Source of the DNA: Escherichia phage moskry
Length of the DNA stretch: 64,000 nucleotides
Reading direction: 5' to 3' (one strand)
Sequence record: MN850651.1
Position numbers and translations under genes: made by a program. Under the pieces are notes generated by a model. That model saw nothing but the letters and a program-made list of their open reading frames with translations, was not told the origin of the DNA and searched no databases. Positions 24,814 to 42,786 of the stretch are shown in pieces (position 1 is the first letter of the stretch; the number at the start of each line of letters is the position of its first letter).

Positions 24814-24879
24814 TTTTAAATAGCTGGTCAATACGTTTCTTGTGGGCTTTCTTAAGCTGTCGTTTATTTAAACGAGCCA

Positions 24880-26706: not shown

Positions 26707-26745
26707 AGTATTCTCCAGAGGCCTTATTAATTTAAGGCCATCATA

Positions 26746-27430: not shown

Positions 27431-27431
27431 T

Positions 27432-28091
27432 TTAACCTCGATTCATAAATGCATTAAATATTTGGTCATCAACAGAAATTTCTAATTCGACTTCAATTGC
27501 TTCAGCCTTTTCTTCAGGTGGTAATTCATATCCACACACTACAATTTTTTCATCGATATCAAAATATACAGAAGCAATACGATTAATGTTATTTTCAGTT
27601 AAGTCTAAATCAACATCAACATCTTTTTGACCTACACTTAAAGGATAACTAATACGGGTTATTTTATTATCTTTAACAAAGAGTCCACCAACATACTCTG
27701 TACTACGTTTGAAGTCTACACGTTTCCGAATTGAAAGATATGATACATCTTTACCGTGAGCTCGGCTCATAGGACATAATGAATAGCTAGAATAAGAGAT
27801 GTCAAATCCTACACCTTCAATATGAGCCAACGTGTCATGATTAAACCAATTATAATCATATGCCAAATCCATTATATTGTAATATGTGAAAGGCACAGGA
27901 TTAACATCATATGTTGTACCTTTAAAATCTGCCCAGGCAACGATTTCGTTATCTTTAACAATTACAAAAATTACACCAATATGATATCCGTTATTATTTT
28001 CGTTCGGCGTTATATTATAACATTGTGCATTAGGAAATTTACCATATTTAAATGGTGCGTTTTTGTGCATATAATAAATCATATTATTCAC
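27432..28091 (-). CDS. hypothetical protein (219 aa)
   Basis: ORF track; start overlaps the upstream stop. Confidence 0.5.
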   Translation of the reverse strand: MNNMIYYMHKNAPFKYGKFPNAQCYNITPNENNNGYHIGVIFVIVKDNEIVAWADFKGTTYDVNPVPFTYYNIMDLAYDYNWFNHDTLAHIEGVGFDISYSSYSLCPMSRAHGKDVSYLSIRKRVDFKRSTEYVGGLFVKDNKITRISYPLSVGQKDVDVDLDLTENNINRIASVYFDIDEKIVVCGYELPPEEKAEAIEVELEISVDDQIFNAFMNRG

Positions 28092-28377
28092 CTGTGATTT
28101 CGGTTACGATATCTTTGTTATCGAAATTAGGGTCACAATACAAAACATAATTGTACTGCATGATACCGCCGGACTTAAGTTGTTCAACAACTTTATTGAC
28201 CATATTAGGACGGTCTCGTTTAGTGATGTTCATGATATCAGAGAAGATTTGTTGTTCAACATCTTCTTGATTTGCAGTCATTGACCACTCACAGAGGTCT
28301 TTATCATAACCTGCCGTAACTGGAGCCGGTGCACATGATACTGCAAGTAAGATTGCTGCCAATGATAACTTTTTCAT
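28084..28377 (-). CDS. sp: Spackle-like periplasmic protein (lysozyme inhibitor / superinfection exclusion)
   Basis: 97 aa with signal peptide MKKLSLAAILLAVSCAPAPVTAG, then ..YDKDLCEWSMTA.., ..GGIMQYNYVLYCD..; size and features match T4 Sp as recalled. Confidence 0.6.
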   Translation of the reverse strand: MKKLSLAAILLAVSCAPAPVTAGYDKDLCEWSMTANQEDVEQQIFSDIMNITKRDRPNMVNKVVEQLKSGGIMQYNYVLYCDPNFDNKDIVTEITGE

Positions 28378-28406
28378 TTTAACTCCTTAGTTGATTTGAT
28401 AGGACT

Positions 28407-28436
28407 ACTATAACATAGTCCATCTATAATGTAAAC
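28407..28436 (-). promoter_or_regulatory. early promoter GTTTAC-N18-TATAGT
   Basis: Read directly, with dyad GGACUA/UAGUCC around the -10. Confidence 0.5.
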
Positions 28437-28440
28437 AAGT

Positions 28441-28689
28441 TTATTCTTTTTCGCGAATAATAATTACTTGTTGAGGCTGCTGAGCAGATTTCTTTTCGGC
28501 AACGATAGACCAAATTAAAGTTCCAATCCAACCAATCATCGTCCAGTTAAAGAGTAAAGATACAAAGAAGATTGCTGTTGTGCCTTTTGTGCCACGAATA
28601 AGTGCGATTACCCAAGGCAACATGTAAATGATGATTGAACCAATACCTGCGATTAAAACTGCTACTGAACTAGCCACGAATAATTCCAT
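28441..28689 (-). CDS. two-TM membrane protein, superinfection-immunity (Imm)-like
   Basis: 82 aa; ..YMLPWVIALIRGTKGTTAIFFVSLLFNWTMIGWIGTLIWSIV.. resembles the LPxxIA..R....NWT.IGW pattern of Imm-family proteins (from memory). Confidence 0.4.
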   Translation of the reverse strand: MELFVASSVAVLIAGIGSIIIYMLPWVIALIRGTKGTTAIFFVSLLFNWTMIGWIGTLIWSIVAEKKSAQQPQQVIIIREKE

Positions 28690-28750
28690 GTTAATTTCCT
28701 CTTGATTTGTTATGTTTATAGTATCTTGTTTTAACTTTGGTGTAAACCAA

Positions 28751-29119
28751 TTAATTAAATTTGTTTAAACGTTCAATACACTGGACGTAGTTATTCGCTA
28801 TTTGTTTCTGGGTAGGCTCTTTACCAGTTGTTTCAACATAGCGAATGAATGCGATTTCAGTAGCCTGTAAACAATGCTCTTTAACACGTTGTTCTTTTGA
28901 CAATGCTACAGTATCAGAGTCACGATAACGTTGAGCATGGGCATCAGCTTGAATCATTCGATTACCTACAGTAACCGGGTCTTCCACTTCAACTTTAGGT
29001 TGTTCATATTGTTTAACATTCGGATTGTAAATCAATTGGCCAACGTTATTAGGGATAAAGCCATGGGCACCACATCCGGTTAATCCAAATACCATTGCTA
29101 AAGCGATTAATTTTTTCAT
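28751..29119 (-). CDS. putative lipoprotein
   Basis: Signal peptide with lipobox (..AMVFGLTGC) at the N-terminus; 122 aa. Confidence 0.55.
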   Translation of the reverse strand: MKKLIALAMVFGLTGCGAHGFIPNNVGQLIYNPNVKQYEQPKVEVEDPVTVGNRMIQADAHAQRYRDSDTVALSKEQRVKEHCLQATEIAFIRYVETTGKEPTQKQIANNYVQCIERLNKFN

Positions 29120-29147
29120 TTCAATTTCCTCTGTAGTTGATAGAAAG

Positions 29148-29177
29148 ATAGTAACACAGTATGTGGGGCCTGTAAAC
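29148..29177 (-). promoter_or_regulatory. early promoter GTTTAC-N18-TACTAT
   Basis: Read directly. Confidence 0.5.
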
Positions 29178-29179
29178 AG

Positions 29180-29437
29180 CTATTTTAAACTTTTGCGAAA
29201 TTTGCGTTTTTCTTGACGAATCTGTCGTTTAGTCGGACGTACAGCAAATTTAACGAAGTCCACTTTGCCGTGTGGAAACTTTTCAGATGCTTCACAGTCC
29301 ATCATTAGTTCCCATCCTTCCAGAATAAGAGCTTTCCATTGTGTAGTTGATGCAAATTCGTATGTTGATGGTTTAAACACAGTTGAATACATATTATCCT
29401 CTGAAATCAGCTTCAAAAACTTTCTCGTCATTAACAA
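29180..29437 (-). CDS. hypothetical protein (85 aa; TTG start in track)
   Basis: ORF track; 5' end overlaps dmd by about 44 nt, start may be the internal Met. Confidence 0.35.
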   Translation of the reverse strand: MLMTRKFLKLISEDNMYSTVFKPSTYEFASTTQWKALILEGWELMMDCEASEKFPHGKVDFVKFAVRPTKRQIRQEKRKFRKSLK

Positions 29438-29588
29438 ATGCTTTAACTAATGCGTTGTTCACTTCAGCAAACTGCATGGTAGCCCACATGATATGCTCTT
29501 TGTCTGTTATATCCATGCGGATTTCTTTGGTAAACATACTACCATTTTCAAACCAACCAATAAAAACTACTTTAGCAAACTCTTCCAT
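29394..29588 (-). CDS. dmd: Dmd-like antitoxin (discriminator of mRNA degradation)
   Basis: 64 aa; ..KVVFIGWFENGSMFTKEI.., ..WATMQFAEVNNALVKAF.. resemble T4 Dmd as I recall it. Confidence 0.55.
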   Translation of the reverse strand: MEEFAKVVFIGWFENGSMFTKEIRMDITDKEHIMWATMQFAEVNNALVKAFVNDEKVFEADFRG

Positions 29589-29906
29589 TTAGATTTCCTC
29601 ACAGAACGCCCATTCAGCATGATAAACTGTAGCGCCTTTAGTATCATTCATTTGAACTACATCTACCGGAGAAATTACTCGATAGAGACGTGGTTCACCT
29701 CCATAAGAGCGTGCTGCTCGTCCTGCATAAATCTTTGCTAAACCGATATCTTCAGTAAAGAATACACGATCCAAGTTTTTCTTACGTCCAGTTTCAGACA
29801 GAACTCCTGTTTCCTCAGGAGGACAAAGCATGTTTTCGATGTTAGCTGAACTACTTGAACCGTGATAAAAAATCTTAAATTCTGCTTTACAATCGATGGT
29901 TTTCAT
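29589..29906 (-). CDS. hypothetical protein (105 aa)
   Basis: ORF track. Confidence 0.5.
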   Translation of the reverse strand: MKTIDCKAEFKIFYHGSSSSANIENMLCPPEETGVLSETGRKKNLDRVFFTEDIGLAKIYAGRAARSYGGEPRLYRVISPVDVVQMNDTKGATVYHAEWAFCEEI

Positions 29907-29932
29907 TTTGTTCTCCAGTAGTTGATAGGTCT

Positions 29933-29960
29933 ATAATAACACAACTACTGGAGAAGTAAA
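29933..29960 (-). promoter_or_regulatory. early promoter GTTTAC-N16/17-TATTAT
   Basis: Read directly; followed by AGACCTATCAAC. Confidence 0.5.
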
Positions 29961-29961
29961 C

Positions 29962-30336
29962 TTAAAAACGTAATTTAGATATATCTGCGTTGATTTCGTT
30001 TTGGTTCGCGTCATATGCAATTAAACGAACCGCTTTAGATGGGTCATTCAATGCATAGAAATGATGGAACATTGCTCGAACGATATCACCATTTACGAGT
30101 TCTACCTGGATAGGAGAACCTTTTTCGAGTTGGAAATGTTCATAAGCTTTGATGGTTCGTAGATAATCAAGTTTTTGATTTCCAGCTCCAACTATTTGTA
30201 CGATACGTTTGCCCATGTTTTCCATACGAGATACAATAGTTTTAGGAGCAAGAATAACGTAGGTTGCCAGCGGAGAAACTACTTCAACAGTTGTGTTTTC
30301 GGTGATTGCAGTAAAAATTGCTTGAGACATATTCAT
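29962..30336 (-). CDS. hypothetical protein (124 aa)
   Basis: ORF track. Confidence 0.5.
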   Translation of the reverse strand: MNMSQAIFTAITENTTVEVVSPLATYVILAPKTIVSRMENMGKRIVQIVGAGNQKLDYLRTIKAYEHFQLEKGSPIQVELVNGDIVRAMFHHFYALNDPSKAVRLIAYDANQNEINADISKLRF

Positions 30337-30365
30337 AATGTTTTCCTCTTGGTTAGTGTAAGTAC

Positions 30366-30395
30366 ATCATATCATGCCTAGAGGAAGATGTAAAC
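30366..30395 (-). promoter_or_regulatory. early promoter GTTTAC-N18-TATGAT
   Basis: Read directly, between the gene 41 terminator hairpin and the next gene. Confidence 0.5.
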
Positions 30396-30401
30396 CCCGA
30401 A

Positions 30402-30424
30402 AGGAGACCGAAGTCTCCTTTTTA
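30402..30424. terminator. hairpin AGGAGAC-CGAA-GUCUCCU downstream of gene 41, with U-run on the + strand
   Basis: Perfect 7-bp stem; T5 run follows on + strand; may stop antisense transcripts or stabilise the gene 41 mRNA 3' end. Confidence 0.5.
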
Positions 30425-31867
30425 TTAAAATTTTAACTCATTGGCTAAGCTATCTAGGTCAGCACGTGTTGCTTTGGCTTTACCTACGCGTTCCGTACGA
30501 TTCACCTCTGCCTGACGCATCTGAGCACCTGCGTTTTCATTTACTGTGTTAGGTGTGTTCATGCCTTCTTGCTCAATCTCAATCCATTTCTGGTTGCCTT
30601 TACGTACACCCATCAGGAATTTATTCCACTTATTCTTATCACCATATCGTGATTTGATTTGTTTGATAAGTTGTTGTTCAGCTTGTGCAAGTTCTTCGGT
30701 TTCAATTACGGCCAACATGAAATCTGCCGTTGCTGGTAAACCTGCTGATTCTGCAATATCGCTCATGTTCATGTCTGAAGCATCCCATGCTGCACGTCCT
30801 ACTTGAGCTGCAGTCCATAGAACTGTTTCAGATTCTACTGCTAATGCACGAAGTTCTTCTGCGATAGCTTTAACTAATGTGTAGCTATTTTCAGTGTAAA
30901 CTCTGATACGACAAGACCCACAAATACCTAAGTAATCAACCATGATTACAGATGGCACAAAATTCTTCTTAAGTTTTAACTCATTAAGCAATGCACGGAA
31001 TGTATTAGCATTAGCTCCACCAGTAGGATACTGTTTAACTACTAAACGTCCTAATGTAGATTTTGAACGCCATTTTTCCATCTTGGCTTTATATTCAGCA
31101 TAAGATACGTTACCATCATCGATATCATCGAGTGATACGTCAAGCATGTTTGCATCTATACGCTTAGCACAAACTTCTTCAGCCATTTCCATGGAAATAT
31201 AAAGAACATTATGACCTGTTTGAAGATAATCTGCAGCAAGTGAACAAAGGCCTAAAGATTTACCAACGTTAACACCAGCCATTAAAACATTCAGTGTACC
31301 TGTTTCTGCGCCGCCTTTGGTGATTTTATTCAGAATGTTTAATTTGAACGGGACCTTACGTGCTTTATTTAGATAAGAAAGCCAGCGTGCTTCGTAGTCT
31401 TCCATCCAGTCATGTCCAACATAACTATCAAACGAAATTGAAAGTGCTTGACGCATAATATCAGGAATAGCTCCTACATCAGGCATTTTCTTGTTACGTT
31501 GTTCTGGAGGTAGTTCAGCATTAGACTGAATCTCAATGATTTTGGATGTAGCATTATACATCGCTTTTTGCTGGACATATTTCTCAGTTTCTTTAACCAA
31601 CCATTCGTGGTCTTCAGGAGTATCAGCCAATTTTTCAATTAGGTCTGAAGTTCCTTTATATTCGGCTTCAGTTAAAGAACTGTTATCTAAAGCCACCTTT
31701 AATGCATTGATGGATGGCATTGCATTATATTCGTTAACGTGGCTCTTTATAATTTTAAAGACATTTTTTGCCGGTCCACGCTCAAAATACTCAGAATCCA
31801 TATAAGGCCAGACCTTAGAAAAATAAGCCTGGTCGTATACTAGATGAGACAAAATAATTTCTACCAC
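30425..31867 (-). CDS. 41: replicative DNA helicase gp41 (DnaB-like)
   Basis: 480 aa; near-identical to T4 gp41 as recalled (MVEIILSHL.., Walker A ..GVNVGKSLGL..). Confidence 0.95.
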   Translation of the reverse strand: MVEIILSHLVYDQAYFSKVWPYMDSEYFERGPAKNVFKIIKSHVNEYNAMPSINALKVALDNSSLTEAEYKGTSDLIEKLADTPEDHEWLVKETEKYVQQKAMYNATSKIIEIQSNAELPPEQRNKKMPDVGAIPDIMRQALSISFDSYVGHDWMEDYEARWLSYLNKARKVPFKLNILNKITKGGAETGTLNVLMAGVNVGKSLGLCSLAADYLQTGHNVLYISMEMAEEVCAKRIDANMLDVSLDDIDDGNVSYAEYKAKMEKWRSKSTLGRLVVKQYPTGGANANTFRALLNELKLKKNFVPSVIMVDYLGICGSCRIRVYTENSYTLVKAIAEELRALAVESETVLWTAAQVGRAAWDASDMNMSDIAESAGLPATADFMLAVIETEELAQAEQQLIKQIKSRYGDKNKWNKFLMGVRKGNQKWIEIEQEGMNTPNTVNENAGAQMRQAEVNRTERVGKAKATRADLDSLANELKF

Positions 31868-31876: not shown

Positions 31877-32239
31877 TTAAAAGAATTTAAATTTTTTCTT
31901 GGTTCGTTCATTAAAAGCTTGTTGTACTTGCATTGTAACACATTTTTCAACATGTGGTGCAAGTTCTGCTTTTCTGTCCTGATCAAGAACTGCAAAGTCC
32001 ATTACGATTTTACCATCAACCCAGTCTAGTTTTGTAATATAGACTATATGATGAGAACCGTCTTCAAGTGTAATCAGAATCTCTTGAATGACATTTTCCA
32101 TTGCTGAACGGACAATTTTAAGAGATTCATTAAACACTCGTTCTTTGCGAATGTCTTCCCCTTCCGAAGAAGGGGATTCATCAACGATTTCTAGATTTAA
32201 ATCATCGAGATTATTCATCGAAATCTTCCATTTCGTCAA
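31877..32239 (-). CDS. 40: gp40-like protein (by position between gene 41 and uvsX)
   Basis: 120-aa ORF; synteny only. Confidence 0.45.
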   Translation of the reverse strand: MTKWKISMNNLDDLNLEIVDESPSSEGEDIRKERVFNESLKIVRSAMENVIQEILITLEDGSHHIVYITKLDWVDGKIVMDFAVLDQDRKAELAPHVEKCVTMQVQQAFNERTKKKFKFF

Positions 32240-33383
32240 GGTCGTTTTCTATATCTGCTGCAGACGGAGCATCAGAAGTTTTAACAGGAACTTTAGTTGT
32301 TGCTTTGCAATTAATAAGGTCGTTAACAGCGTCATCAACTTCTTTAATAGAAGAGATAGCACCTAGTTTATATTTAGTTTCAATTGCATCTCGGAAAGGT
32401 TTGTGTTTAAACAAAGGTCCCCAGAATTCTACACAATCAGTAGCTTTAGCACGCCATGATTTTTCTTCACGAATCATTTCACCTGTTTCTTCGTCAAGGA
32501 ATTCACGAGCATACCAACCGGCTTTAGGCTTAACTACAAAACCAATTTCAGTTGCCATTTCTAACAAGCCACTGAATGGGTCAATACCGCCATCAAAATT
32601 AACCGTGATTGGGAAAGTAGATTTCTCTTTAACTGTACGAGATTTTTCTGCTTTCAACGTGAAGTCATAACCGGTCAATTCTGTACCTTCTTTAACCTGA
32701 CGTTTAGAGATAAAGAATACAGTGTTAGCAGAGTAAAGAATACCTGTACCACCACCCATAATCTCTTTAGGATATAGTCCGCCGATTTCCATTGCTGTAT
32801 GGTTGATTGCAACACACGGAATATCTTTAATAGTCAGATAAGGAGTCACAATACGGAACAGAGATTTAAGTGCCTTAGCACGAGACATATCACCTACAAC
32901 TTTCTCGTTCAATGCATCTTCGGTTTCTTTCTTAGATGCAGTATTACCAATCGAGTCAATAAAGATAATAACTTTATCACCGCGTTCAATAGCGTCAAGC
33001 TGATTAGTCATATCGACTTTAAGTTGTTCGACAGACTGAATTGGTGTATGAACTACACGGTCTAAATCGACACCCATCGAACGGAAGTAAGATTCTGAAG
33101 CACCGAATTCTGAGTCATAAAACAAACAGATTGCATCTTTATATTTCTTCATATACGCTGCAACCATAGTTAGTCCAAACAATGTTTTAAAATGTTTAGA
33201 AGGTGCAGCAAAAATAGTCAAGCCTGATTGCAATCCTGCATTCAGAGCACCACCTAGTGCAATATTCAACATCGGAATACGAGTAGGGACTTCATCACGA
33301 TTATTAAACAGCTTAGACTTAGTCAAGTCTGCAGTCATTTTAGAAGTAGAAGCTTTAATCAGACGAGATTTTAAATCAGACAT
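32211..33383 (-). CDS. uvsX: UvsX RecA-like recombinase
   Basis: 390 aa; ..RIPMLNIALGG.., Walker A-like ..FAAPSKHFKT.., overall match to T4 UvsX. Confidence 0.95.
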   Translation of the reverse strand: MSDLKSRLIKASTSKMTADLTKSKLFNNRDEVPTRIPMLNIALGGALNAGLQSGLTIFAAPSKHFKTLFGLTMVAAYMKKYKDAICLFYDSEFGASESYFRSMGVDLDRVVHTPIQSVEQLKVDMTNQLDAIERGDKVIIFIDSIGNTASKKETEDALNEKVVGDMSRAKALKSLFRIVTPYLTIKDIPCVAINHTAMEIGGLYPKEIMGGGTGILYSANTVFFISKRQVKEGTELTGYDFTLKAEKSRTVKEKSTFPITVNFDGGIDPFSGLLEMATEIGFVVKPKAGWYAREFLDEETGEMIREEKSWRAKATDCVEFWGPLFKHKPFRDAIETKYKLGAISSIKEVDDAVNDLINCKATTKVPVKTSDAPSAADIENDLDEMEDFDE

Positions 33384-33481
33384 TGTATTTTTCCATAGGC
33401 ATCATTATATTTTACTCATGTTTAAAAGATAAGATGATTATATACTAAGGGTTATACAGCATTTAAAAATTTAAATGGCTC

Positions 33482-34030
33482 TTAACGAGCCCATTTAATG
33501 ATTTCTGTAATCAAATAATTACGTTCGCTTGCATTAAATCCTATAACTTTGTTAGCACCATCATGATTAAGTAATTGATACGTTTGGATTTTGTTATGAA
33601 TTGCAAACTCTTCAAAATATGAAATGACTGTATTAAAACCGAATGAAGACAAAGTAATAAGGTCGTCTTCAAAACTTTCAGTCATTTCGTTACGTGTTAA
33701 AATAATTGTGAACACATCATGGTTTTGGCAAAGACGAACATAATCCTGTTCATAAACATCAAGAACCGAGTCCGCATCTTGTCGAATACGTCCATAAACC
33801 CAGTTACTAATATATCCACGGTCTAACAGATAAATCTTAGTAGGGTCTAAATAATTCAACATCGTTTCGAAACAGCCGACTTCATTTCGAGACTTAACAT
33901 CGAAACGCCCATCAACTGTTCGTTTAGGGAAATCAATCTTTACATATCTTTCACTAATTTCCATTATGTCATTAATGAAAGTTGTTTTACCAGCATTATC
34001 CGGCCCGTCTACTAAAATAATTTTAGCCAT
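33482..34030 (-). CDS. P-loop kinase (nucleotide- or sugar-kinase-like), function unknown
   Basis: 182 aa; Walker A ..ILVDGPDNAGKTTF.. near the N-terminus, ..YLLDRGY.. downstream; not present at this position in T4. Confidence 0.5.
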   Translation of the reverse strand: MAKIILVDGPDNAGKTTFINDIMEISERYVKIDFPKRTVDGRFDVKSRNEVGCFETMLNYLDPTKIYLLDRGYISNWVYGRIRQDADSVLDVYEQDYVRLCQNHDVFTIILTRNEMTESFEDDLITLSSFGFNTVISYFEEFAIHNKIQTYQLLNHDGANKVIGFNASERNYLITEIIKWAR

Positions 34031-34031
34031 T

Positions 34032-34931
34032 TTATTCCTCGATTACGACATCTTCGTATTTAGGTATATTATACGGTGAAGAAATTAAAGCATTAAAGTA
34101 GATGAACTCACCAAGACCTGGATGGAATACTTCTTCAGGATTTTCGAAATATTGAATCTTCGGACGTCCTTTAAGAATTTGATAGTACTCAGTTTTAGTT
34201 GGATTAAAAATTCGAATCAGCGCTTCTTCAGGATACTTATTTCTGTCGAAGCTATTATTTGGATCGGTTATATAAAGCGGTTGACCTAATTGAATTGCGC
34301 ATTCAACCACTTGTTCAAAACGATAACACGGGTCACTAATTCGAAATGGATGAAAAATACCATCTAGATGAATAGGAGCCAAATCACCTACAAGACGCTG
34401 CATGATGGAAGGACGTATAACTTTCTGAGTTACGATAATCTTATTACCATCTGCACCTGCGTTAACCAGCACTTCTTTTTGACGTTCATTCAACACAGTA
34501 GTTTGAAGTGAACTATTAACTGACAACATATCGGTTTTTAAGAATTCGTCAATATAAAAACGTGGTTTATTAGGGTCTGCCGTGATATTGAAATTGAATT
34601 CTACATCAAAAGCGCCGTCATAACCAGTGATATCTGTTATTAGAAAATCACAATCATAATAAGCAATTAATGAATCAACCACAAATTCATTTTCAGACCA
34701 GAAATATTTACGAGTGTTATACGCGTTATCTTTATACCATAATGGAACAAACTTAAATTCCGGGAAAAGACGTTCACATTCTTTAATATCAGATGCATTA
34801 CGTGGATATGTAATCACATCACCTGGATTAGCACGGTGCAAATGAAGTTGGAAGTTGCCATCCTTAAGGATAGCATACTGTCCAGTTTCATAAGACCGCA
34901 TACTCAAAATAGGTACGCGGAAAATAGCCAT
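34032..34931 (-). CDS. hypothetical protein (299 aa) occupying the T4 beta-glucosyltransferase position
   Basis: ORF track; stop/start coupled to the kinase and hydroxymethylase genes; no motif I can assign with confidence. Confidence 0.5.
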   Translation of the reverse strand: MAIFRVPILSMRSYETGQYAILKDGNFQLHLHRANPGDVITYPRNASDIKECERLFPEFKFVPLWYKDNAYNTRKYFWSENEFVVDSLIAYYDCDFLITDITGYDGAFDVEFNFNITADPNKPRFYIDEFLKTDMLSVNSSLQTTVLNERQKEVLVNAGADGNKIIVTQKVIRPSIMQRLVGDLAPIHLDGIFHPFRISDPCYRFEQVVECAIQLGQPLYITDPNNSFDRNKYPEEALIRIFNPTKTEYYQILKGRPKIQYFENPEEVFHPGLGEFIYFNALISSPYNIPKYEDVVIEE

Positions 34932-35647
34932 TAGTCAAGAAATCCTTTAACATAATCAAAATCACGTTCAAACACATGGGCACTTACCATGGTATGAGTA
35001 TAATCACCAACTTCTACACCACATTCGTTAGCGATATAATGAAGTAATTTTCCTTGGAGATAAAAATCCAACTGCATAACAACAGCACAGTTCTGAGAAC
35101 GCATATGACAGTGGGTATAAAGCTTACCATCACGAATATAATAAGTCACTGAGTCAGTACATGGATATTCAAGTGTTTCGTCCGAATCAAGCAAAGCCTG
35201 ATCAGAACTTTCTAGAATTTGGAACACAACTCTTCGAGAGTTAGGTTTCTCTTTAAGTTCTTTTAGAAGAGCCGGTAATTGGGCCGCAATGCGAGGACCG
35301 TAGAAAGTGTTGAAGTTTGCAGGCAAAGCGTCTGATTTAGGTTTAGAAATAAATTTAGCGACATTAGGATATGCCTTAAACGCTTCTTCTGCATCAGTAC
35401 CACCAGAAATCATAAACTTCCAGAAGTCTTCGGCATATTCATAAGAGATGCGGTTAATACGTGGGTCGGTCATTTTGAATGATGATGGATTGTCAACAAC
35501 TACTGTCATGGACCCGATTTCATTACAACGTCCAATACGAGAATTAGTTACGAATTCGGGGTTTTCTAAAATTTCACGATTGACTGCTTTAAATGCGGTT
35601 TGAAAATCTGCGGCTTTGATATATTTCATTGTGTTATGTTTTCCCAT
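34931..35647 (-). CDS. 42: thymidylate-synthase-fold dNMP hydroxymethylase (gene-42-like, probably dCMP-specific)
   Basis: 238 aa; ..LEYPCTDSVTYYIRDGKLYTHCHMRSQNCAVVMQLDFY.. aligns with the TS/dCMP-HMase catalytic Cys segment (P-C..Y.(I/V)RD(G/K)K..(Q/N)..RS.D) with Asp at the base-specificity position. Confidence 0.65.
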   Translation of the reverse strand: MGKHNTMKYIKAADFQTAFKAVNREILENPEFVTNSRIGRCNEIGSMTVVVDNPSSFKMTDPRINRISYEYAEDFWKFMISGGTDAEEAFKAYPNVAKFISKPKSDALPANFNTFYGPRIAAQLPALLKELKEKPNSRRVVFQILESSDQALLDSDETLEYPCTDSVTYYIRDGKLYTHCHMRSQNCAVVMQLDFYLQGKLLHYIANECGVEVGDYTHTMVSAHVFERDFDYVKGFLD

Positions 35648-35689
35648 GTTTACCTCAATACAATTTATTATATACTCAATTCGTAAAGC

Positions 35690-35929
35690 TTATTTGAATT
35701 TCTTAGCAATGTTGATATAACGTAAAGCTTCAGAATCTATACTTCCAAGAACACTATGAAGGAATGCATCAGCGTAGTATTCTAGTTGAACAGGTTCTTT
35801 AATCGCTTTAGCCGCTTTAGTTTCAAACAGGCCCATAAGGGCCTTTTTAAGAATTTGTTCGTTGCTATTAATTTTTATGGTCAAAATCTCTTCATTAAGT
35901 TGGTGGTTAAAAGTTTTTCTAGAAATCAT
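35690..35929 (-). CDS. hypothetical protein (79 aa)
   Basis: ORF track; overlaps the upstream gene by 4 nt. Confidence 0.4.
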   Translation of the reverse strand: MISRKTFNHQLNEEILTIKINSNEQILKKALMGLFETKAAKAIKEPVQLEYYADAFLHSVLGSIDSEALRYINIAKKFK

Positions 35930-37104
35930 TCCGGGTACCTCAAAGCGTCGTCAGAGTTAGTTATATCAATAATAGATATAGAATTTTCTGATAACCCATT
36001 TTTAGATAACTGGCGTTTATAATATCTTTCACAATATGTACACGTCGTCCCGCAGATTTCATTAGCACAATCGAAATCTGGATGTCTGAACCACCTTTTT
36101 TCTAAAAAGCCGTCTAACAAAGAGGTTTCAATATTTACCGTATGTGAAAACTCGGTCTCATTTTCAAGAGTGAAAATGGTCTCTAAAGGCTTCCACAATT
36201 CCAACAAATTACCTTCAAACTTTTCAGAAGCATAAGCTTCAAGAACTTTCAAAATGTAGTCGGTGCTACCTGTACGTCCCGAAACTTTAAATTGAGTGAT
36301 ACCAATATCGTTATAAAGTTTCAAATCTTGGGGACGAACAAAACGAGTTCTCAACCAGTTAAATGGGTCTGTATCACGAGCTTTAATACAGTGCTGCATA
36401 GGATATCCGTTTAAGGATTTAGCATCATCAGCCGTAACATCAGTACTATGGAAAATATAGCAAGAGTCACGATAGCTACAATGTGTTGTATACCCTTTAC
36501 CAGCATTAGAACAGAACTCATTTACAAGAACTTCAAATATTATATTGTTCTTATTGCAAAACTCTGCTGCACGCTTCAGGAAAGAAACTGAACGGTTCTT
36601 ATGAATTCCACAGCAGACCTTTTTGATATTATATTGGTCATGCAAGTATTTGATTTGAGTTACAGCATCGACATGTAGAATTGTTGAAACTTCAATCTCA
36701 ATGTCTTTATTGACTTCACGAACAATTTCCATAACAACAGGGTTAGCGATAGTAATACGCCATACGCCTATTGACCAAAGATACTGAACATAATCCTGAA
36801 TAGCTTTCTTCTTCCACTCAACTAGTTCTCTTTTTGAACCAGGATTTATCGTGTTGAGTGTATAGTTAAAGCAAATACCTAATTCGTTACAACGTTTAAC
36901 GTAGTCTTCTAACATCTTTTTGTCAACGTCAGGAAGCCTAAAATCAGGTCTGGCTGCTACAAAAGCCATTTCTCTTGTAGAGCCGTATACTTCGTTTATC
37001 AAGCTATTAGGATAAGTTTTATTGAGCTCTACGATTTTATCAAGAAGAGCTAAATCAAAATTCGTTCCGATTTTAAAAGTATTCATTTTTTTTTTGCATC
37101 TCAC
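35926..37104 (-). CDS. Cys-rich protein of unknown function (392 aa); candidate metal-dependent enzyme/transferase
   Basis: ORF track; Cys clusters (..EFCSNAGKGYTTHCSYRDSCY.. and C-terminal ..CANEICGTTCTYC..); part of the sugar module. Confidence 0.5.
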   Translation of the reverse strand: MRCKKKMNTFKIGTNFDLALLDKIVELNKTYPNSLINEVYGSTREMAFVAARPDFRLPDVDKKMLEDYVKRCNELGICFNYTLNTINPGSKRELVEWKKKAIQDYVQYLWSIGVWRITIANPVVMEIVREVNKDIEIEVSTILHVDAVTQIKYLHDQYNIKKVCCGIHKNRSVSFLKRAAEFCNKNNIIFEVLVNEFCSNAGKGYTTHCSYRDSCYIFHSTDVTADDAKSLNGYPMQHCIKARDTDPFNWLRTRFVRPQDLKLYNDIGITQFKVSGRTGSTDYILKVLEAYASEKFEGNLLELWKPLETIFTLENETEFSHTVNIETSLLDGFLEKRWFRHPDFDCANEICGTTCTYCERYYKRQLSKNGLSENSISIIDITNSDDALRYPE

Positions 37105-37145
37105 GTTAATTGATGCGATGGTTTTTGCAGGTCTTACTTAAATTA

Positions 37146-37547
37146 TTATAGATTAGGTTTATATGATTTAAATGTTTCGAATTCGCCTTTATTCATAAGA
37201 GCTTTGAATTCGTCAGGACGCATAGCTTTGTCGTCGATAATCCAATCATATACTGGTTTATGTGTTAGCAAATTATGGTACTTCAAGCCAATGTTTGCTA
37301 AGTTCTGAATCAGACTTGGGAGAATGTCAATTGCTATACGACCAGGACCTACTGACTTCATACCGCGAGCAGTGTAAAGCGTTATGGTATGCCCTGCATC
37401 ATACAGGGCATTAATGGCAGACACCATTTCGACGTCTGGTTTGAAGTTCACGTAATCACGATTGTTATTCCACTCTGTTATACAATCATCGACATCAAAA
37501 CAAAGATTAAGCATGTTTTCTACACGGTGCATTAGATTCGTTCCCAT
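37146..37547 (-). CDS. HAD-superfamily phosphatase (small, cap-less)
   Basis: 133 aa; motif I ..LCFDVDDCIT.., motif II ..TLYTARG.., motif IV ..WIIDDK.. Confidence 0.55.
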   Translation of the reverse strand: MGTNLMHRVENMLNLCFDVDDCITEWNNNRDYVNFKPDVEMVSAINALYDAGHTITLYTARGMKSVGPGRIAIDILPSLIQNLANIGLKYHNLLTHKPVYDWIIDDKAMRPDEFKALMNKGEFETFKSYKPNL

Positions 37548-39217
37548 TGATGAGTGATATCGCCACCAATTGGGCGATAAGAAACACCAGTTTCTTTATC
37601 AGTTAGTACCCATTTACCAGGATTTTTTGTAATCAGAGTAGCCGTTACAGGTTCTGCTACGTCATAACTAATAGAGCCGTCTTGAAGTACACGGCCCATG
37701 TTACGTAATTGCTTAGTCAGAAGTTCCATACCTTTATAATATGCAGCTACCGCTTTAAGTGGATTATTCTTGAAATAACCACCTAATGCAATCCAGATAA
37801 TTGCCACTGCCAAATGATGATACTCGTTAAACGAACTCATCTTTCCATATTTGTAAACTAATGGATTGATGTTAATAGTCACATTACAAGTTGTTTCATC
37901 AATAGTAAACTGTCCCCAGGTCGGATTAGCGTTGAATTCATCATAACCTGAAACAGCATAAAGCACTTTAGCTTCATCGTACAATTTTGGCCCGTAAATC
38001 TTGGTTTCCCCAAAATATCCACGAGGGTCGATAAACTTGACTTCGCCGTTATCAGTAATCATAGTATTACTGAAGTTCGGGTCACCATGAATAACAGAGT
38101 ACTGTCCCTGAGAACGGTTATGATAACGAATAAGGTGTTCTAAAGCTTGTTTCAGCATTGGCTTCAGACGCCCAATCTTAGTGTAGTTCACATGGGTGAT
38201 TTTACCAAATGAATCAATCAATGGTTGAATGCTTTCACAACGATCAATAACTTTCGTATAGAATTCTTTAGTGAAATCACGGCGAACAGTTTCAGGACTT
38301 ACAAAATAAGTGTCTGTGCTGAATTTCAGTGCATCTAAAATTGCATCAACAATTTGTGGACGAGCAAGACTTGATTTGGATTTAATATATTCAAATGCCG
38401 GCTTACCTTTAATGCGTTCCATTTCAAAGTTATTTTCATTAACAGAAACTAACTGAGGAACTGAATCTGATTTCACTTTAAGATACCATGAAATCTCATC
38501 TTTCTGAAGAGCTCGACCCTGTTCGGTTAATGCGAATTTAGTTACAGTTTCTTCACCAATTTCAACTGCATTAAAACTACGATTAAGTTCACGAACTTCA
38601 TGAGCTTTTTCAAGTTTAGGCATATCACCTAAATCAATTAGATTCATAAGCTCTGATTTATTGAATGCGCTGCCGTAAAGGAATTCTACGAAATCGCGTC
38701 CTTTGCAGTATTCATGAATTTCCTCATCGGTAGAACCCATATAGAATTCCCAGTCTTTGAACTGATAAATTCCTACAACATTACCACCTGTTGAACCTAC
38801 GTTAGTGATATTTTCACCGTCGAAATTATATCGACATTCGTCACCCTTAACATAGATTGCGTTAACATTCCAAGACCATGAACCAAAATCGGGAATAATA
38901 TCACACCAGTTAACAATTACATTATGGCCGTCTAAATCTTTGTGTAATTTAGCAAGAGCATAAGCAGAACCGTACGCTTCATCAACTGTACGAATAGTCA
39001 CATTGAACCCTTCTTGCTCACAATAAGCTCGAACAGTTTCAGCAAATTTTGAATGAACTACTACAATAATTTCATCTGCGCCAAGGTCAGAATAAATTGT
39101 ATACAAATTGCTCAGAATAGTGTCTTGTTTATAGTTAACAAGCACCTTAGGAATATGATGCGTTATTGGATATAAACGAGTCGCCAGTCCAGCACCAAGA
39201 ATAACAGCTTTTTTCAT
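37532..39217 (-). CDS. bifunctional sugar-1-phosphate nucleotidyltransferase (N) / APH-choline-kinase-like anomeric sugar kinase (C)
   Basis: 561 aa; N-terminus MKKAVILGAGLATRLYPITHHIPKVLV (G-x-G-x-R-L-x-P-x-T..PK-x-L nucleotidyltransferase signature); C-terminal ..VIHGDPNFSNTMIT..VKFIDPRGYFG.. (H-G-D-x-x-x-N and I-D-x-x kinase motifs). Confidence 0.7.
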   Translation of the reverse strand: MKKAVILGAGLATRLYPITHHIPKVLVNYKQDTILSNLYTIYSDLGADEIIVVVHSKFAETVRAYCEQEGFNVTIRTVDEAYGSAYALAKLHKDLDGHNVIVNWCDIIPDFGSWSWNVNAIYVKGDECRYNFDGENITNVGSTGGNVVGIYQFKDWEFYMGSTDEEIHEYCKGRDFVEFLYGSAFNKSELMNLIDLGDMPKLEKAHEVRELNRSFNAVEIGEETVTKFALTEQGRALQKDEISWYLKVKSDSVPQLVSVNENNFEMERIKGKPAFEYIKSKSSLARPQIVDAILDALKFSTDTYFVSPETVRRDFTKEFYTKVIDRCESIQPLIDSFGKITHVNYTKIGRLKPMLKQALEHLIRYHNRSQGQYSVIHGDPNFSNTMITDNGEVKFIDPRGYFGETKIYGPKLYDEAKVLYAVSGYDEFNANPTWGQFTIDETTCNVTININPLVYKYGKMSSFNEYHHLAVAIIWIALGGYFKNNPLKAVAAYYKGMELLTKQLRNMGRVLQDGSISYDVAEPVTATLITKNPGKWVLTDKETGVSYRPIGGDITHQWERI

Positions 39218-39245
39218 GTTGAAGTCCTCATTGGTAAGTAGGAGT

Positions 39246-39270
39246 ATTGTACACTATTCTAGTTAAAGCA
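39246..39270 (-). promoter_or_regulatory. candidate MotA-dependent middle promoter (MotA box TGCTTTA, 12 nt, -10 TACAAT) upstream of the nucleotidyltransferase/kinase gene
   Basis: Read on - strand: GAATGCTTTAAC..TACAAT about 30 nt upstream of the ATG. Confidence 0.4.
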
Positions 39271-39398
39271 TTCATACTTTGCTTGTAGTCCAATCATAAT
39301 CCATCCAATTACAAGTGTTGGAATCATTACTGGAGCCGTTAAGCTCCAGTAGATAGTCATGACAAGCATCAATAGTAAAAGTCCTATTGTTATTGCTT

Positions 39399-40034
39399 TC
39401 ATTGTTCGCCTCGTAACATGGCACCTAGTGCACCGCCTGGATGGAACTTAAGGAAGTCATTAGAGGTAAATCCACGCTCAGACGAAAGGTTGATAGCGAA
39501 CGTATCGATAAGCGCTAACAACAATGTAGTGGACATAGTCGGAGCTAAAGAGTTCTCGTCAACTTCTACCGCGATACCGGTACAGAACGTATAATCAAAA
39601 AGAGCTTCGTATTCTTGTGGAATGTCAGGGTTACAATGCAACAGAATCTGTTTGACGTTCGGGCGAATCATTTTAAGATGCTTAGCCACGCCTATCATTT
39701 CTTCAGTTTTACCAGAACGACTAATATGAATCAACACATCATTAGGCGCAATGAATCCTGCATCACCGTGAGAATAATGCCCAGTGTTCAAGTACATACT
39801 AGGGATACCGAGTGAAGCAAATGTCTCAGAAGCTTTAGTTGCAATATTAGCATTCTTACCAACACCTGTAATAATTACTCGGCTTTCATAATTACTAAGT
39901 CCCGGGCGTCGAAGAGTTTCTAGAATAGCATTATAACGAGCAGGGTTTTGACTAATTACTTTGGCCATAGCGGCCAAAGAAGAAGCTTGTTTTATGATTG
40001 CGTCAATAGCGATAGTAATAGGAGTAGTTTTCAT
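39399..40034 (-). CDS. SIS-domain sugar-phosphate isomerase (arabinose-5-phosphate isomerase-like, no CBS domains)
   Basis: 211 aa; ..ITGVGKNANIATKASETFASLGIPS.., ..HISRSGKTEE.. typical SIS (KpsF/GutQ/KdsD-type) motifs. Confidence 0.65.
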   Translation of the reverse strand: MKTTPITIAIDAIIKQASSLAAMAKVISQNPARYNAILETLRRPGLSNYESRVIITGVGKNANIATKASETFASLGIPSMYLNTGHYSHGDAGFIAPNDVLIHISRSGKTEEMIGVAKHLKMIRPNVKQILLHCNPDIPQEYEALFDYTFCTGIAVEVDENSLAPTMSTTLLLALIDTFAINLSSERGFTSNDFLKFHPGGALGAMLRGEQ

Positions 40035-40074: not shown

Positions 40075-42786
40075 TCAAAAATCGAACATATCGAACAGAG
40101 ATGCTTTCTTCTCGTAATCGAGTTTCGCCGCTGATGTGAATCCTTCAAGTGGTTTAATAAATGTCTTCTCAAGGAGAACCGTGTAGTCCATCCAATGAAG
40201 TACATCATCTTTGATTAAATCAGTGATTTCAGTACCAGAAGGCCATGCGATACATTTATCACCGAATGGGTTTCCTTCACGTAAAGGCAGAACATATACT
40301 TTTTCACCTTCTACAACTTGTGGTGCATCGATATTACCTTTGATAGCCCGGTTATACGTCAGAATTCCACGAATATGGAACGGGCATTTAGGACCAGGGA
40401 ATCCACCTACATCATATTTAGCAATGTTATTCGCAGAAGATACCGACGCGATGCTAATATAATTCAATTGACGGAATTCTTTTTCAAACTCTTTAAAATA
40501 TTCTTGTAATGATTCTTCACCTTCTTGAAGCATACGACGAATACATTCCTTAAGAGCTTTCTGTACTGCTTTAGGGGTTGAAGATTTCTGTGTTTCGAGA
40601 CCCATGATTTTAAGCTTAGGTTCAGCGTATCTAGTTCCTTCCATATCCCACACGTTTAATGCATAACGTTTCTTACCAGTCCAAAATCCACCAATACCTT
40701 TAGAACCAAGCGGAGGTCCAGCGATAGCTTCTCGGTCCATGAACATCAAATGTTGCTTATTATTCATGTATTCGCACATTTCACGGAAACCTCTATCAAT
40801 AGCAGGTTCCATACGTTCACGAGCGAACTTATCTAAGAAGTCTACCCAATGGTTAGTATCGCGGAATTTAGATTCACCAACCTTATCAATAATTTTATCT
40901 GCAGATACGTAAATGGAGTCTGTATCACCATATAGAACGAAAGCTTCACCTTCTGTACCACAAACTTCATTCAGATATTCATTAACTTTACGTTCAATCC
41001 ACTGTAAAGCCATTTGACCAAATGTTGTGATTGCAGTAGCATTACGCAAATCGTAATAACGGAACCAAACGTTGCCAAGTGCACCATAAAGTGAGTTGAT
41101 AAGCAATTTACGGTTAATTTGGGCAGTCATACCTGCAACTTCAGTACGTTGAGCTCTAAACAACATTTCATTAAGAGATTTAGCAGACAACTTTTTAATC
41201 TTTTCTTTAATCTCATCGCTAAAGTCGAAACGATAATCAACATCTAATGGTTCGTCAACAGAAAGATTAGGATTATGCAACGCCTCTTTAATTATTTCAC
41301 CATTACGTTGAGCCGCAAGCATATAACCTTTATGTTCTTTACGTTGATTAAAGACTTTAGTGATTTCAGTTGGAACTACACCATCACGGTCTTTATAATA
41401 CATCATGCCGTTAGGAGAGCAACTGTACACATCAGAAGGACGTTCAGCAACAGCGTTAATATAATCATGCAATGGAGCTACTTTAAACGTTCCTGCTATT
41501 GTTTCTGGGCTAATATTCACTTGGCGAATAATACTTGGATACAGAGATGTAAGGTCGAAACTCATTACATATTTGTATCGATTTGGAATAGGTTCCTTAA
41601 CAAAAGCGCCAGGATAAGGTTGAACTGGATGCGAACGACCTTGTGGAATCACCTTGTTCTGCTCTTTAAGGCTATTGAAAATAATAGCGTCCCAAGTTTT
41701 AATTGGACTGAACACAGATTGAATCTGAATTTTAGCATAATACCCCATGTCCAAACTCAAGTTAATGAACTGGCGTTTAGCATCAATTTGCAATACACGA
41801 TACACGTCGATAATGTTATAAGAAATATATCGTTGGTGATTGCTTTCACGAAGCTTAGAAATAGGGCCGTCATATTTCAGTTTACCAACGTTCAATTCAA
41901 ATTCTGAAATGTAATCCAGAGAATATGACGGTTGGTTCGTGAAAGAGAACTTTTTGTAAAGGTCAATGTAATCAAGAACAGAGATACCGAACAATGTAAT
42001 GATTTCACGAGAACCATACATGTTTTCGATAACTTTAACACGAGTTTTACGATGTGGTGATAAACGTTTCGCAGTAGATTCGCCAAAAATATTCTTGATT
42101 CGGTTATACACATATGGAATATCAAATGACTCAACGTTCCATCCAGTCAAAATGACAGGAGTTTTCTGTTGCCAGAAGTTGAGATATTCCATCAATAATT
42201 CTTTTTCATTATCAAACGGCATATAAACGATTTTGTCGATAATTTCGGATGGAACTTCATCACCACCTTGTTCTTGAAGCTTAGCTGCAATTTCGATAGA
42301 CCATTCTTCTACATTACCATATGGAGAATTCAATAGATCAAATACGTAGAACCTGTCGTCAATTGAGTCATAATGGGTGATGGCATCAATTGGATGTTTT
42401 GCTTGTGACGGCTCAGGGAACCCATCCGGAGATGTTACTTCGATGTCGAAGTTAGCCACACGAATTTTTGTATGGTCGTATTTGATTTCATAGTTATAAG
42501 TGTCAGACAAATACGCCAATTTGAAATCGTCCATGCCAAGTGCTTCAAGTCCGATATCTTCCATGCGTTTAATCCATTGGGAGGCATCACGCATATTAGC
42601 GAACAACTTACGAGTACACGGCTTACCGTAGATATCGAAATATTTCGTAGCCTGACTTTCTGGACAATGAGCAAACAGTGATGGTTTATATTCTACTTCA
42701 CGAGTACGTTCACGGCCATTAGAATCGATGTAACGTTCAAAAATTGAATCACCAATCTGTTCAACCGTTAAGTAAAATTCTTTCAT
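40075..42786 (-). CDS. 43: DNA polymerase gp43 (family B, RB69-type)
   Basis: 903 aa; N-terminus MKEFYLTVEQIGDSIFERYIDSNGRERTREVEYKPSLFAHCPE.. and exo/pol motifs (..FDIEV.., ..YGDTDS..) match the RB69 polymerase sequence as I remember it. Confidence 0.97.
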   Translation of the reverse strand: MKEFYLTVEQIGDSIFERYIDSNGRERTREVEYKPSLFAHCPESQATKYFDIYGKPCTRKLFANMRDASQWIKRMEDIGLEALGMDDFKLAYLSDTYNYEIKYDHTKIRVANFDIEVTSPDGFPEPSQAKHPIDAITHYDSIDDRFYVFDLLNSPYGNVEEWSIEIAAKLQEQGGDEVPSEIIDKIVYMPFDNEKELLMEYLNFWQQKTPVILTGWNVESFDIPYVYNRIKNIFGESTAKRLSPHRKTRVKVIENMYGSREIITLFGISVLDYIDLYKKFSFTNQPSYSLDYISEFELNVGKLKYDGPISKLRESNHQRYISYNIIDVYRVLQIDAKRQFINLSLDMGYYAKIQIQSVFSPIKTWDAIIFNSLKEQNKVIPQGRSHPVQPYPGAFVKEPIPNRYKYVMSFDLTSLYPSIIRQVNISPETIAGTFKVAPLHDYINAVAERPSDVYSCSPNGMMYYKDRDGVVPTEITKVFNQRKEHKGYMLAAQRNGEIIKEALHNPNLSVDEPLDVDYRFDFSDEIKEKIKKLSAKSLNEMLFRAQRTEVAGMTAQINRKLLINSLYGALGNVWFRYYDLRNATAITTFGQMALQWIERKVNEYLNEVCGTEGEAFVLYGDTDSIYVSADKIIDKVGESKFRDTNHWVDFLDKFARERMEPAIDRGFREMCEYMNNKQHLMFMDREAIAGPPLGSKGIGGFWTGKKRYALNVWDMEGTRYAEPKLKIMGLETQKSSTPKAVQKALKECIRRMLQEGEESLQEYFKEFEKEFRQLNYISIASVSSANNIAKYDVGGFPGPKCPFHIRGILTYNRAIKGNIDAPQVVEGEKVYVLPLREGNPFGDKCIAWPSGTEITDLIKDDVLHWMDYTVLLEKTFIKPLEGFTSAAKLDYEKKASLFDMFDF

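Follow-up and report, generated by a model that had tools for sequence, protein, structure and literature searches.

The 64,000-nucleotide stretch of the Escherichia phage moskry genome (MN850651.1) analysed here, hereafter called the window, carries a block of nine open reading frames (ORFs), all on the minus strand (33482-40034), between uvsX and the DNA polymerase gene 43. Here we examine this block as a candidate DNA hypermodification cluster, together with a U32-family gene that lies within it. In the order of transcription, the nine ORFs encode a 211-aa SIS protein, a 47-aa predicted membrane protein, a 561-aa fusion of a nucleotidyltransferase and a kinase, a 133-aa HAD protein, a 386-392-aa protein with a Peptidase_U32 domain, a 79-aa protein, a 238-aa protein of thymidylate synthase (TS) fold, a 299-aa protein without family match and a 182-aa P-loop kinase. 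The gene junctions range from -16 to +59 nt, with overlaps in four pairs, and the GC content of the cluster (0.33-0.41) is similar to that of its flanks. A first-pass annotation, made from the sequence alone, had described eight co-oriented, tightly packed genes between uvsX and an RB69-type polymerase; the orientation, the packing and both flanking genes are as described, and the count of eight holds for ORFs of at least 79 aa, to which the 47-aa ORF adds a ninth.

Over its whole length, the cluster is 97.8% identical in DNA to positions 24047-30598 of phage RB69 and equals RB69 ORF045c-055c; its best DNA match is ECO26.1 3-1 (98.9%), and a single match spanning at least 80% of the cluster was found in 151 phage records. 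The identity to RB69 and the 151 matching records indicate that the window derives from a Mosigvirus, an RB69-like T-even phage, and the cluster proteins share 98-100% identity with their orthologs in Mosigvirus genomes. Gene content, gene order and the position between uvsX and gene 43 are shared with both RB69 and the HY126 Afh cluster. ORF53_52 and ORF46_47 are unbroken in this isolate, whereas sequencing errors split both in the GenBank record of RB69. The features of the cluster and the related genes elsewhere in the window are collected in Table 1.

Table 1. Features of the hypermodification cluster and related genes in the window
Feature	Position	Strand	Remarks
Proposed second arabinosyltransferase, RB69 ORF003c ortholog	11800-12897	-	tblastn 99% over 366 aa to RB69p003
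dCTP pyrophosphatase, gp56-like, clears dCTP from pool	24883-25401	-	65% identical to Thanatos-2 dCTPase; Pfam dUTPase_2
T4 imm homolog	28444-28689	-	64% over 83 aa; ~11 kb from T4 position
uvsX	32211-33383		flank of cluster
Terminator-like hairpin, end of cluster	33477-33491	-	GGCTC-GTTAA-GAGCC and T-rich tail; overlaps kinase stop codon; consensus match only
Thymidylate-kinase-like P-loop kinase, RB69 gp45	33482-34030	-	P-loop GPDNAGKT; weak dTMP-kinase matches
Proposed first DNA arabinosyltransferase, RB69 gp46:47, 299 aa	34032-34931	-	98% identical to Mosigvirus ortholog; adjoins hydroxylase
TS-fold 5-hydroxy-dCMP synthase, RB69 gp48, flavin/O2-dependent	34931-35647	-	Pfam Thymidylat_synt 2.3e-15
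79-aa helical ORF, RB69 gp49	35690-35929	-	start overlaps U32 stop codon by 4 nt, translationally coupled
U32-family putative iron-sulfur protein, RB69 gp50 ortholog, predicted hydroxylase	35926-37086	-	Peptidase_U32 domain, TIM-barrel fold
HAD phosphatase, AfhF-like, RB69 gp51 (arabinose-1,5-bisphosphate to arabinose-1-phosphate)	37146-37547	-	DVDDC motif I
Bifunctional arabinose-5-phosphate 1-kinase/arabinose-1-phosphate uridylyltransferase, AfhE-like, RB69 ORF53_52c	37532-39217	-	99.6% identical to RB69
47-aa predicted membrane ORF, RB69 ORF054c	39259-39402	-	overlaps isomerase stop by 4 nt
SIS-only arabinose-5-phosphate isomerase, RB69 gp55 ortholog (ribulose-5-phosphate to arabinose-5-phosphate)	39399-40034	-	Pfam SIS 1.7e-10
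gp43 polymerase, RB69-type by sequence	40075-42786		other flank of cluster
Anaerobic ribonucleotide reductase NrdD (605 aa) and activase NrdG (156 aa)	54408-56692	-	Pfam NRDD 570 bits and Gly_radical; Fer4_12, Radical_SAM

Profile searches against Pfam, NCBIfam and the Protein Data Bank (PDB) upheld each domain signature named in the first-pass annotation, including the four of sugar metabolism (SIS, HAD, kinase and nucleotidyltransferase), although these four domains reside in three proteins. The SIS protein matches the NCBIfam families KpsF/GutQ (2.2e-32) and KdsD (1.2e-30) with 107-113 bits against family cut-offs of 204-505, falling below these full-length cut-offs because the SIS domain stands alone and the tandem CBS domains of KdsD, GutQ and KpsF are absent. 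In PDB it matches 3etn (5.5e-25) and 2xhz (6.5e-19), resembling the SIS-only proteins 3etn and 5uqi, and its function as an isomerase was assigned via structure comparison by Lee et al. 2026 (PMC13326640). As judged from its sequence, it probably works like an isomerase of the KdsD/GutQ/KpsF family, though it is no full-length member. In the fusion protein, an NTP_transferase domain was found at residues 3-99 (8.5e-10, Pfam) and kinase-like matches at residues 308-409, where the APH/choline-kinase-like C-terminus retains an unbroken HGDxxxxN motif (HGDPNFSN at residue 377). The HAD protein matches the NCBIfam family EcbF/BcbF (4.3e-13), the nearly identical PDB entry 9IQW (7.8e-88) and PDB 1xpj (5e-10).

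The SIS isomerase, the kinase/nucleotidyltransferase fusion and the small HAD phosphatase share one operon, and the activities of the latter two are covered by work that Lee et al. 2026 (PMC13326640) cite: both AfhE activities were demonstrated for the HY126 homolog, and the phosphatase function of AfhF is likewise given there through citations. In the route ascribed there to He 2026 and Mahler 2025, ribulose-5-phosphate (Ru5P) is converted to arabinofuranose-5-phosphate and, by the kinase domain of AfhE, to arabinofuranose-1,5-bisphosphate; the AfhF phosphatase then yields arabinofuranose-1-phosphate, and the transferase domain of AfhE forms uridine diphosphate (UDP)-arabinofuranose. Since the kinase step precedes that of the phosphatase, the pathway bypasses free pentose, and the earlier proposal of a route through the free sugar does not hold. 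Its broader idea of a phage-encoded activated-arabinose route that decorates DNA is borne out, as the isomerase, the phosphatase and the fusion do so according to Lee et al. 2026 (PMC13326640), citing He et al. 2026. The supposed novelty of this route is not: section 3.4 of Thomas et al. 2018 (PMC6024577) had already nominated ORF055c and ORF53_52c for UDP-arabinose synthesis, and the pathway was characterised in 2025-2026 (Mahler; He; Lee).

The TS-fold protein, ~98% identical to PDB entries 9IQC, 9IR2 and 9IQU and only 24% identical to T4 gp42, had been taken for the hydroxymethylase that makes the acceptor base; the fold is confirmed, whereas the activity is a different one. In an alignment with Escherichia coli ThyA and T4 gp42 (segments: TS homolog HMRSQNCAVVMQLD; ThyA RSCDVFLGLPFN; T4 gp42 RSNDVVFGFRND), the catalytic Cys146 is retained and the N177 position is occupied by Asp, the residue that confers specificity for deoxycytidine monophosphate (dCMP). 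At the D169 position, where both ThyA and T4 gp42 have Asp, the window protein has Asn, in common with its orthologs from Klebsiella phage KLB31, JS98 and Maestro, and the literature gives Asn at this position as the signature of the hydroxylating branch. The RB69 ortholog gp48 produces 5-hydroxy-dCMP with oxygen from 18O2 and binds flavin (Lee et al. 2026, PMC13326640), which places the sugar in an ether link to 5-hydroxycytosine and not on 5-hydroxymethylcytosine (hmC).

The glycosyltransferase fold of the 299-aa protein is that given by Lee et al. 2026 (PMC13326640), and a role of the ORF003c-type protein as second transferase was proposed both there and by Thomas et al. 2018 (PMC6024577). 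The RB69 gp45 kinase has structural matches to Tmk (Lee et al. 2026, PMC13326640), and the Tmk-like kinase adjoins the glycosyltransferase in every T4-like locus examined.

Based on these features, we read the region with high confidence as the arabinosyl-5-hydroxycytosine DNA hypermodification cluster of an RB69-like Mosigvirus, a system whose gene cluster, donor pathway and modified base are already published, with crystal structures of two enzymes. On the nucleotide side, the dCTPase would remove deoxycytidine triphosphate (dCTP) from the pool, the TS-fold enzyme would hydroxylate dCMP at C5 with flavin and O2, and kinases would lift 5-hydroxy-dCMP to the triphosphate for incorporation by the RB69-type polymerase. 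On the sugar side, the SIS isomerase would convert Ru5P to arabinose-5-phosphate (Ara5P), the kinase domain of the 561-aa fusion would produce arabinofuranose-1,5-bisphosphate, the small HAD phosphatase would strip the 5-phosphate, and the nucleotidyltransferase domain of the fusion would complete UDP-arabinofuranose. The 299-aa transferase would then place the first arabinose on the 5-hydroxyl, and the ORF003c-type transferase would add the second; we infer the step assigned to each transferase and the role of the Tmk-like kinase.

Hydroxylase activity and its O2 use, the activities of AfhE and AfhF (these as cited in PMC13326640) and the DNA chemistry were all shown on proteins near-identical to those of the window or in their phages. 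Arabinose was found in RB69 DNA by Thomas et al. 2018 (PMC6024577), and mass spectrometry (MS) and nuclear magnetic resonance (NMR) showed it to be ether-linked to C5 of 5-hydroxycytosine, with later arabinoses transferred on DNA (Lee et al. 2026, PMC13326640). Mono- or di-arabinosyl-5-hydroxy-deoxycytidine replacing deoxycytidine (dC) has been shown in RB69, NP, Bas46 and others. What weighs against the arabinosyl-5-hydroxycytosine reading is that this chemistry comes from other phages (RB69 etc.) and not from this isolate, that single transferases were inactive on DNA containing 5-hydroxycytosine (Lee et al. 2026, PMC13326640), and that the transferase assignments are proposals; we found no sequence feature that contradicts it. 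The first-pass annotation had named arabinosyl-hmC as the modified base reported for RB69, and such a report does exist (Thomas et al. 2018, PMC6024577), but the assignment has since been termed erroneous (PMC13390438, 2026), and hmC is not the acceptor. A pathway built on that base, in which a T4-type dCMP hydroxymethylase makes hmC and Ara5P passes through arabinose and arabinose-1-phosphate to a nucleoside diphosphate arabinose, would fit the TS fold of the window enzyme and the 2018 report, and Table 1 of Lee et al. (PMC13326640) still gives free-arabinose steps for the phosphatase and the kinase. We nevertheless regard it as very improbable in the light of the Asn at the D169 position, which sets the enzyme apart from T4 gp42, of the 5-hydroxy-dC formed with 18O from O2 by the flavin-carrying RB69 ortholog and the ether link to C5 (PMC13326640), of the correction of the hmC assignment (PMC13390438), and of the action of the HY126 kinase on Ara5P to yield the 1,5-bisphosphate (as cited in PMC13326640). 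It is scarcely conceivable that the sugar genes serve host envelope chemistry, such as that of 3-deoxy-D-manno-octulosonic acid (KDO), lipopolysaccharide or capsule, instead of DNA modification, even though the isomerase is of the KdsD/KpsF type, the HAD protein matches a capsule phosphatase family and PDB 9IQW is titled 'capsule biosynthesis protein': in every related phage examined these genes accompany a base hydroxylase and a DNA glycosyltransferase, arabinose occurs on DNA, and neither KDO-8-P synthase nor CMP-KDO synthetase was found in the cluster (Pfam, NCBIfam).

The arabinosyl-5-hydroxycytosine cluster occupies the same genomic slot as T4 gene 42 and its neighbours and follows a similar logic to T4 gp42 with the alpha- and beta-glucosyltransferases, in that a TS-fold enzyme modifies dCMP before replication, a dCTPase excludes dC and a UDP-sugar serves as donor. 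T4 relies on folate-dependent hydroxymethylation and host UDP-glucose, whereas this cluster relies on flavin/O2-dependent hydroxylation and a phage-made arabinofuranose donor. The suggestion that the cluster stands in place of beta-gt and imm is correct for the former, as no T4 beta-gt homolog was found in the window (tblastn, E<1e-3; alpha-gt not searched), but an imm homolog lies elsewhere in the window, indicating that superinfection immunity is relocated, neither replaced nor lost. The sugar genes recall the ADP-heptose pathway of GmhA, HldE and GmhB, reportedly described by Kneidinger et al. in 2002, with which they share logic and folds: a SIS isomerase, an anomeric kinase forming a bisphosphate, a HAD phosphatase removing the distal phosphate and a nucleotidyltransferase, with the kinase and the nucleotidyltransferase fused in one protein in both cases. 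Here, however, the substrate is a pentose, the fold of the kinase is that of APH/choline kinases and not of ribokinases, a UDP-sugar is produced, and the fusion has its transferase N-terminal and its kinase C-terminal, which differs from HldE. A Foldseek match of the HAD protein to GmhB was reported by Lee et al. 2026 (PMC13326640). The cluster of Acinetobacter phage DLP3/Maestro has in common with this one the isomerase, the AfhE-like fusion, the HAD phosphatase, the TS-type hydroxylase, the first transferase and the Tmk-like kinase; it is without U32, gp49 and chorismate mutase and has extra transferases leading to tri-arabinosylation.

With the donor pathway already known, the remaining novelty of the cluster rests on the U32 gene. 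Ten Cys residues of its product, including a C-terminal CX4CX3CX2C, are invariant among 26 U32 homologs (46-85% identity to the window protein), and C203 and C209 (HC-x5-CYxxH) align with the essential C169 and C176 of RlhA in a weak profile alignment (E ~1e-3). In sequence, the protein is only marginally similar to the U32 proteins of E. coli (NCBIfam UbiU, 9e-4; profile matches, 1e-5 to 0.1). The U32 proteins RlhA (ho5C2501), TrhP (ho5U34) and UbiU-UbiV (ubiquinone) have been implicated in prephenate-dependent, O2-independent hydroxylation, and two of the three have O2-dependent counterparts, namely TrhO for TrhP and UbiI/H/F for UbiU-V; direct in vitro hydroxylase activity has not yet been obtained for U32 proteins (PMC10990095). 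The phage protein resembles these enzymes in its U32 domain, perhaps in the Cys pair of the U32 motif and the C-terminal Cys residues, candidate ligands of a 4Fe-4S cluster, and in a genomic link to prephenate supply, and RlhA also hydroxylates C5 of a cytosine. It is without the DUF3656 region of RlhA, and further differences are a CX4CX3CX2C tail of its own and neighbours that suggest a free deoxynucleotide as substrate. A run of ten A (~37087-37096, minus strand) ends in the ATG start of the gene, and an in-frame GTG lies upstream.

The literature that we searched, which did not cover He 2026 and Mahler 2025, offered neither a role for the U32 protein, the 47-aa ORF or the 79-aa ORF nor any tie between U32, chorismate mutase or prephenate and phage hydroxycytosine. 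In Table 1 of Lee et al. (PMC13326640), RB69p050 is labelled 'sugar or heterocycle reductase', and their Discussion names RNA hydroxylation pathways only as not using TS-fold synthase homologs; the Thanatos paper and a phage transposon-sequencing preprint do not mention a function of the U32 gene.

In Klebsiella phage KLB31, the ORF directly after U32 encodes a chorismate mutase, which scores 38.5 bits with Pfam CM_2 (gathering score, 27). A chorismate mutase directly follows U32 likewise in Yersinia TG1, Serratia 92A1 and Shewanella Thanatos-2, and in 13 of 15 T4-like IMG/VR loci; matches to CM_2 above the gathering score next to U32 were obtained for KLB31, TG1, 92A1, Thanatos-2 and one metagenomic locus (L062). 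Chorismate mutase was seen only where U32 is present and is absent in JS98 and Maestro, and the window itself is without it. In Thanatos-2 (locus L018, 8001-9391), U32 and chorismate mutase have moved together, so that they follow the Tmk-like kinase and do not precede the TS homolog. The Thanatos-2 U32 protein is 79% identical to that of the E. coli phage over its full length, the polymerase 66%; across the T4-like genera, the identity is 79-89% for U32 against 65-79% for the gp43 polymerase, and in most of these genera no other cluster protein is as conserved as U32. U32 was found in 221 isolate-phage records, whose hosts are without exception of Enterobacterales type or Shewanella, the weakest match being Thanatos-2 (82%), and an AfhE-like gene is present in 57 Acinetobacter phage records, apparently without U32. 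A strict tie of U32 to facultatively anaerobic hosts was considered and dropped, as the association runs in one direction only: JS98, a Dhakavirus of E. coli, possesses the pathway but no U32. Similarly, the idea that a phage chorismate mutase feeds a CmoA-type Cx-SAM pathway (PMC12783734) was rejected for the window, where no methyltransferase domain was detected in the cluster (Pfam, NCBIfam).

Members of the same U32 subfamily (40-58% identity) are common in metagenomic viral contigs, and 37 such loci that are not T4-like were examined, with flanks of only 7-10 kb and many of them being related lineages from few samples. A homolog of the 299-aa first transferase neighbours U32 in 25 of the 37 loci, typically immediately upstream, an AfhE-like fusion in 17 and a SIS isomerase in 10. 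A DAHP synthase, a DAHP synthase-chorismate mutase fusion or a lone chorismate mutase abuts U32 in 13 of the 37; Pfam confirmed the fusion in L048 and L059, DAHP synthase in L005 and chorismate mutase in L062. Only one locus has any TS-fold protein, an ordinary full-length ThyA. Other neighbours include dCMP deaminase, dUTPase/DCD, Tmk-like kinases, NT5C, deoxynucleoside kinase, a TET-associated glycosyltransferase and UDP-galactopyranose mutase. As far as gene content within these flanks tells, U32 holds in non-T4-like viruses the place of the T-even TS-type hydroxylase.

Several of these contigs have gene sets of their own. An 86-kb metagenomic contig (L003, 8001-15428, and L004) bears two U32 paralogs together with a 5'(3')-deoxyribonucleotidase, a PnuC-like transporter, a deoxynucleoside kinase, a radical SAM/SPASM protein and a nucleoside deoxyribosyltransferase, which could form a salvage-type pathway for a hydroxylated deoxynucleoside. 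In megaphage-like contigs, which reach 466 kb and carry genes for PolIII alpha, SSB and SLT (L002, 7447-9939; L006, 6504-8826), U32 is flanked by a conserved protein of 248-254 aa without family match and by a dCMP deaminase, and the substrate of U32 there may be a uracil nucleotide. In L008 (5495-13179) and L042, a Tmk-like kinase, a GT1-like transferase, U32, a TET-associated glycosyltransferase, dUTPase/DCD and UDP-galactopyranose mutase occur together, a combination that points to a hexofuranosyl modification of hydroxy-pyrimidines in which U32 is the hydroxylase.

The chorismate mutase and DAHP synthase context, taken with the hydroxylations known for U32 proteins, leads us to predict an anaerobic route to 5-hydroxycytosine, in which U32 would be a prephenate-dependent, O2-independent C5-hydroxylase of deoxycytidylate. 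The TS-fold 5-hydroxy-dCMP synthase, whose gene lies two genes downstream, would thereby have its anaerobic counterpart in U32, a pairing that mirrors UbiU-V versus UbiI/H/F and TrhP versus TrhO. In many uncultivated viruses, where DAHP synthase or chorismate mutase and a glycosyltransferase of the same family accompany it, U32 would act as the sole base hydroxylase. As dCTP is eliminated and the only known hydroxylase needs O2, an O2-independent isoenzyme would fill a logical gap. That this prediction is both true and unreported we hold tentatively, at a little under an even chance. The substrate is possibly cytosine in DNA, and could be deoxyuridine monophosphate (dUMP) or DNA rather than dCMP.

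U32 might instead be no base hydroxylase at all but a sugar or heterocycle reductase, as RB69p050 is labelled by Lee et al. 2026 (PMC13326640), a host tRNA or rRNA hydroxylase, RNA being the substrate of RlhA and TrhP, or a true peptidase; we consider this less likely than not. In its favour, JS98 and the Acinetobacter phages have arabinosylation clusters without U32, and RB69 gp48 alone is enough for 5-hydroxy-dC formation in aerobic E. coli (PMC13326640). These points are countered by the genomic context: a chorismate mutase or DAHP synthase directly adjoins U32 or is fused to it in 13 of 15 T4-like and 13 of 37 other viral loci, U32 and chorismate mutase relocate as a pair in Thanatos-2, the neighbours of U32 are deoxynucleotide genes (dCMP deaminase, dUTPase/DCD, Tmk, NT5C and deoxynucleoside kinase) and not RNA- or protein-processing genes, and in non-T4-like loci U32 stands beside a glycosyltransferase without a TS-type hydroxylase in the flanks.

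If U32 is an anaerobic deoxycytidylate hydroxylase, this would explain the replication of 5-hydroxycytosine-dependent phages in the anoxic gut, and a gut phage that eliminates dCTP and carries NrdD/NrdG could replicate without oxygen. It would also reveal a second viral route, apparently the more widespread one, to the hydroxy-pyrimidines that serve as handles when DNA is glycosylated, and provide U32 enzymology with a small soluble substrate. One prephenate would be used per cytosine, by our estimate ~6 x 10^4 per 168-kb duplex genome at 37% GC, and such a demand, stoichiometric with cytosine, would explain the viral DAHP synthase and chorismate mutase.

The 79-aa ORF after U32 was considered as a diverged chorismate mutase and rejected, with BLASTP against the KLB31 enzyme giving E=6.9 and no Pfam match; a gp49-like ORF stands side by side with a true chorismate mutase in Yersinia TG1 and Serratia 92A1, indicating that the 79-aa ORF is not one. 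Its database relatives are all Mosigvirus proteins with at least 80% identity, and it is 80-98% identical among relatives against ~99% for U32. In Mosigviruses it is often truncated (47-58 aa) or split by frameshifts, suggesting relaxed selection. The 47-aa ORF has no family match in Pfam or NCBIfam; KLB31, TG1 and JS98 have homologs of it, and T4 carries an unannotated one between gene 42 and imm (57% over 30 aa; locus L014, 4231-4320). It is probably not specific to the arabinose pathway and looks like a generic T-even small ORF.

No Rfam family was matched in the region, and promoter-like sites are not enriched there (24 against 29 expected). Public annotations of related phages (RefSeq/GenBank) mislabel several of the proteins: U32 appears under the names 'peptidase' or 'collagenase', the HAD phosphatase under 'phosphoheptose isomerase', and the TS homolog under either 'thymidylate synthase' or 'dCMP hydroxymethylase'; in one public record, the features under the AfhE match read 'dCMP deaminase' and 'homing endonuclease'.

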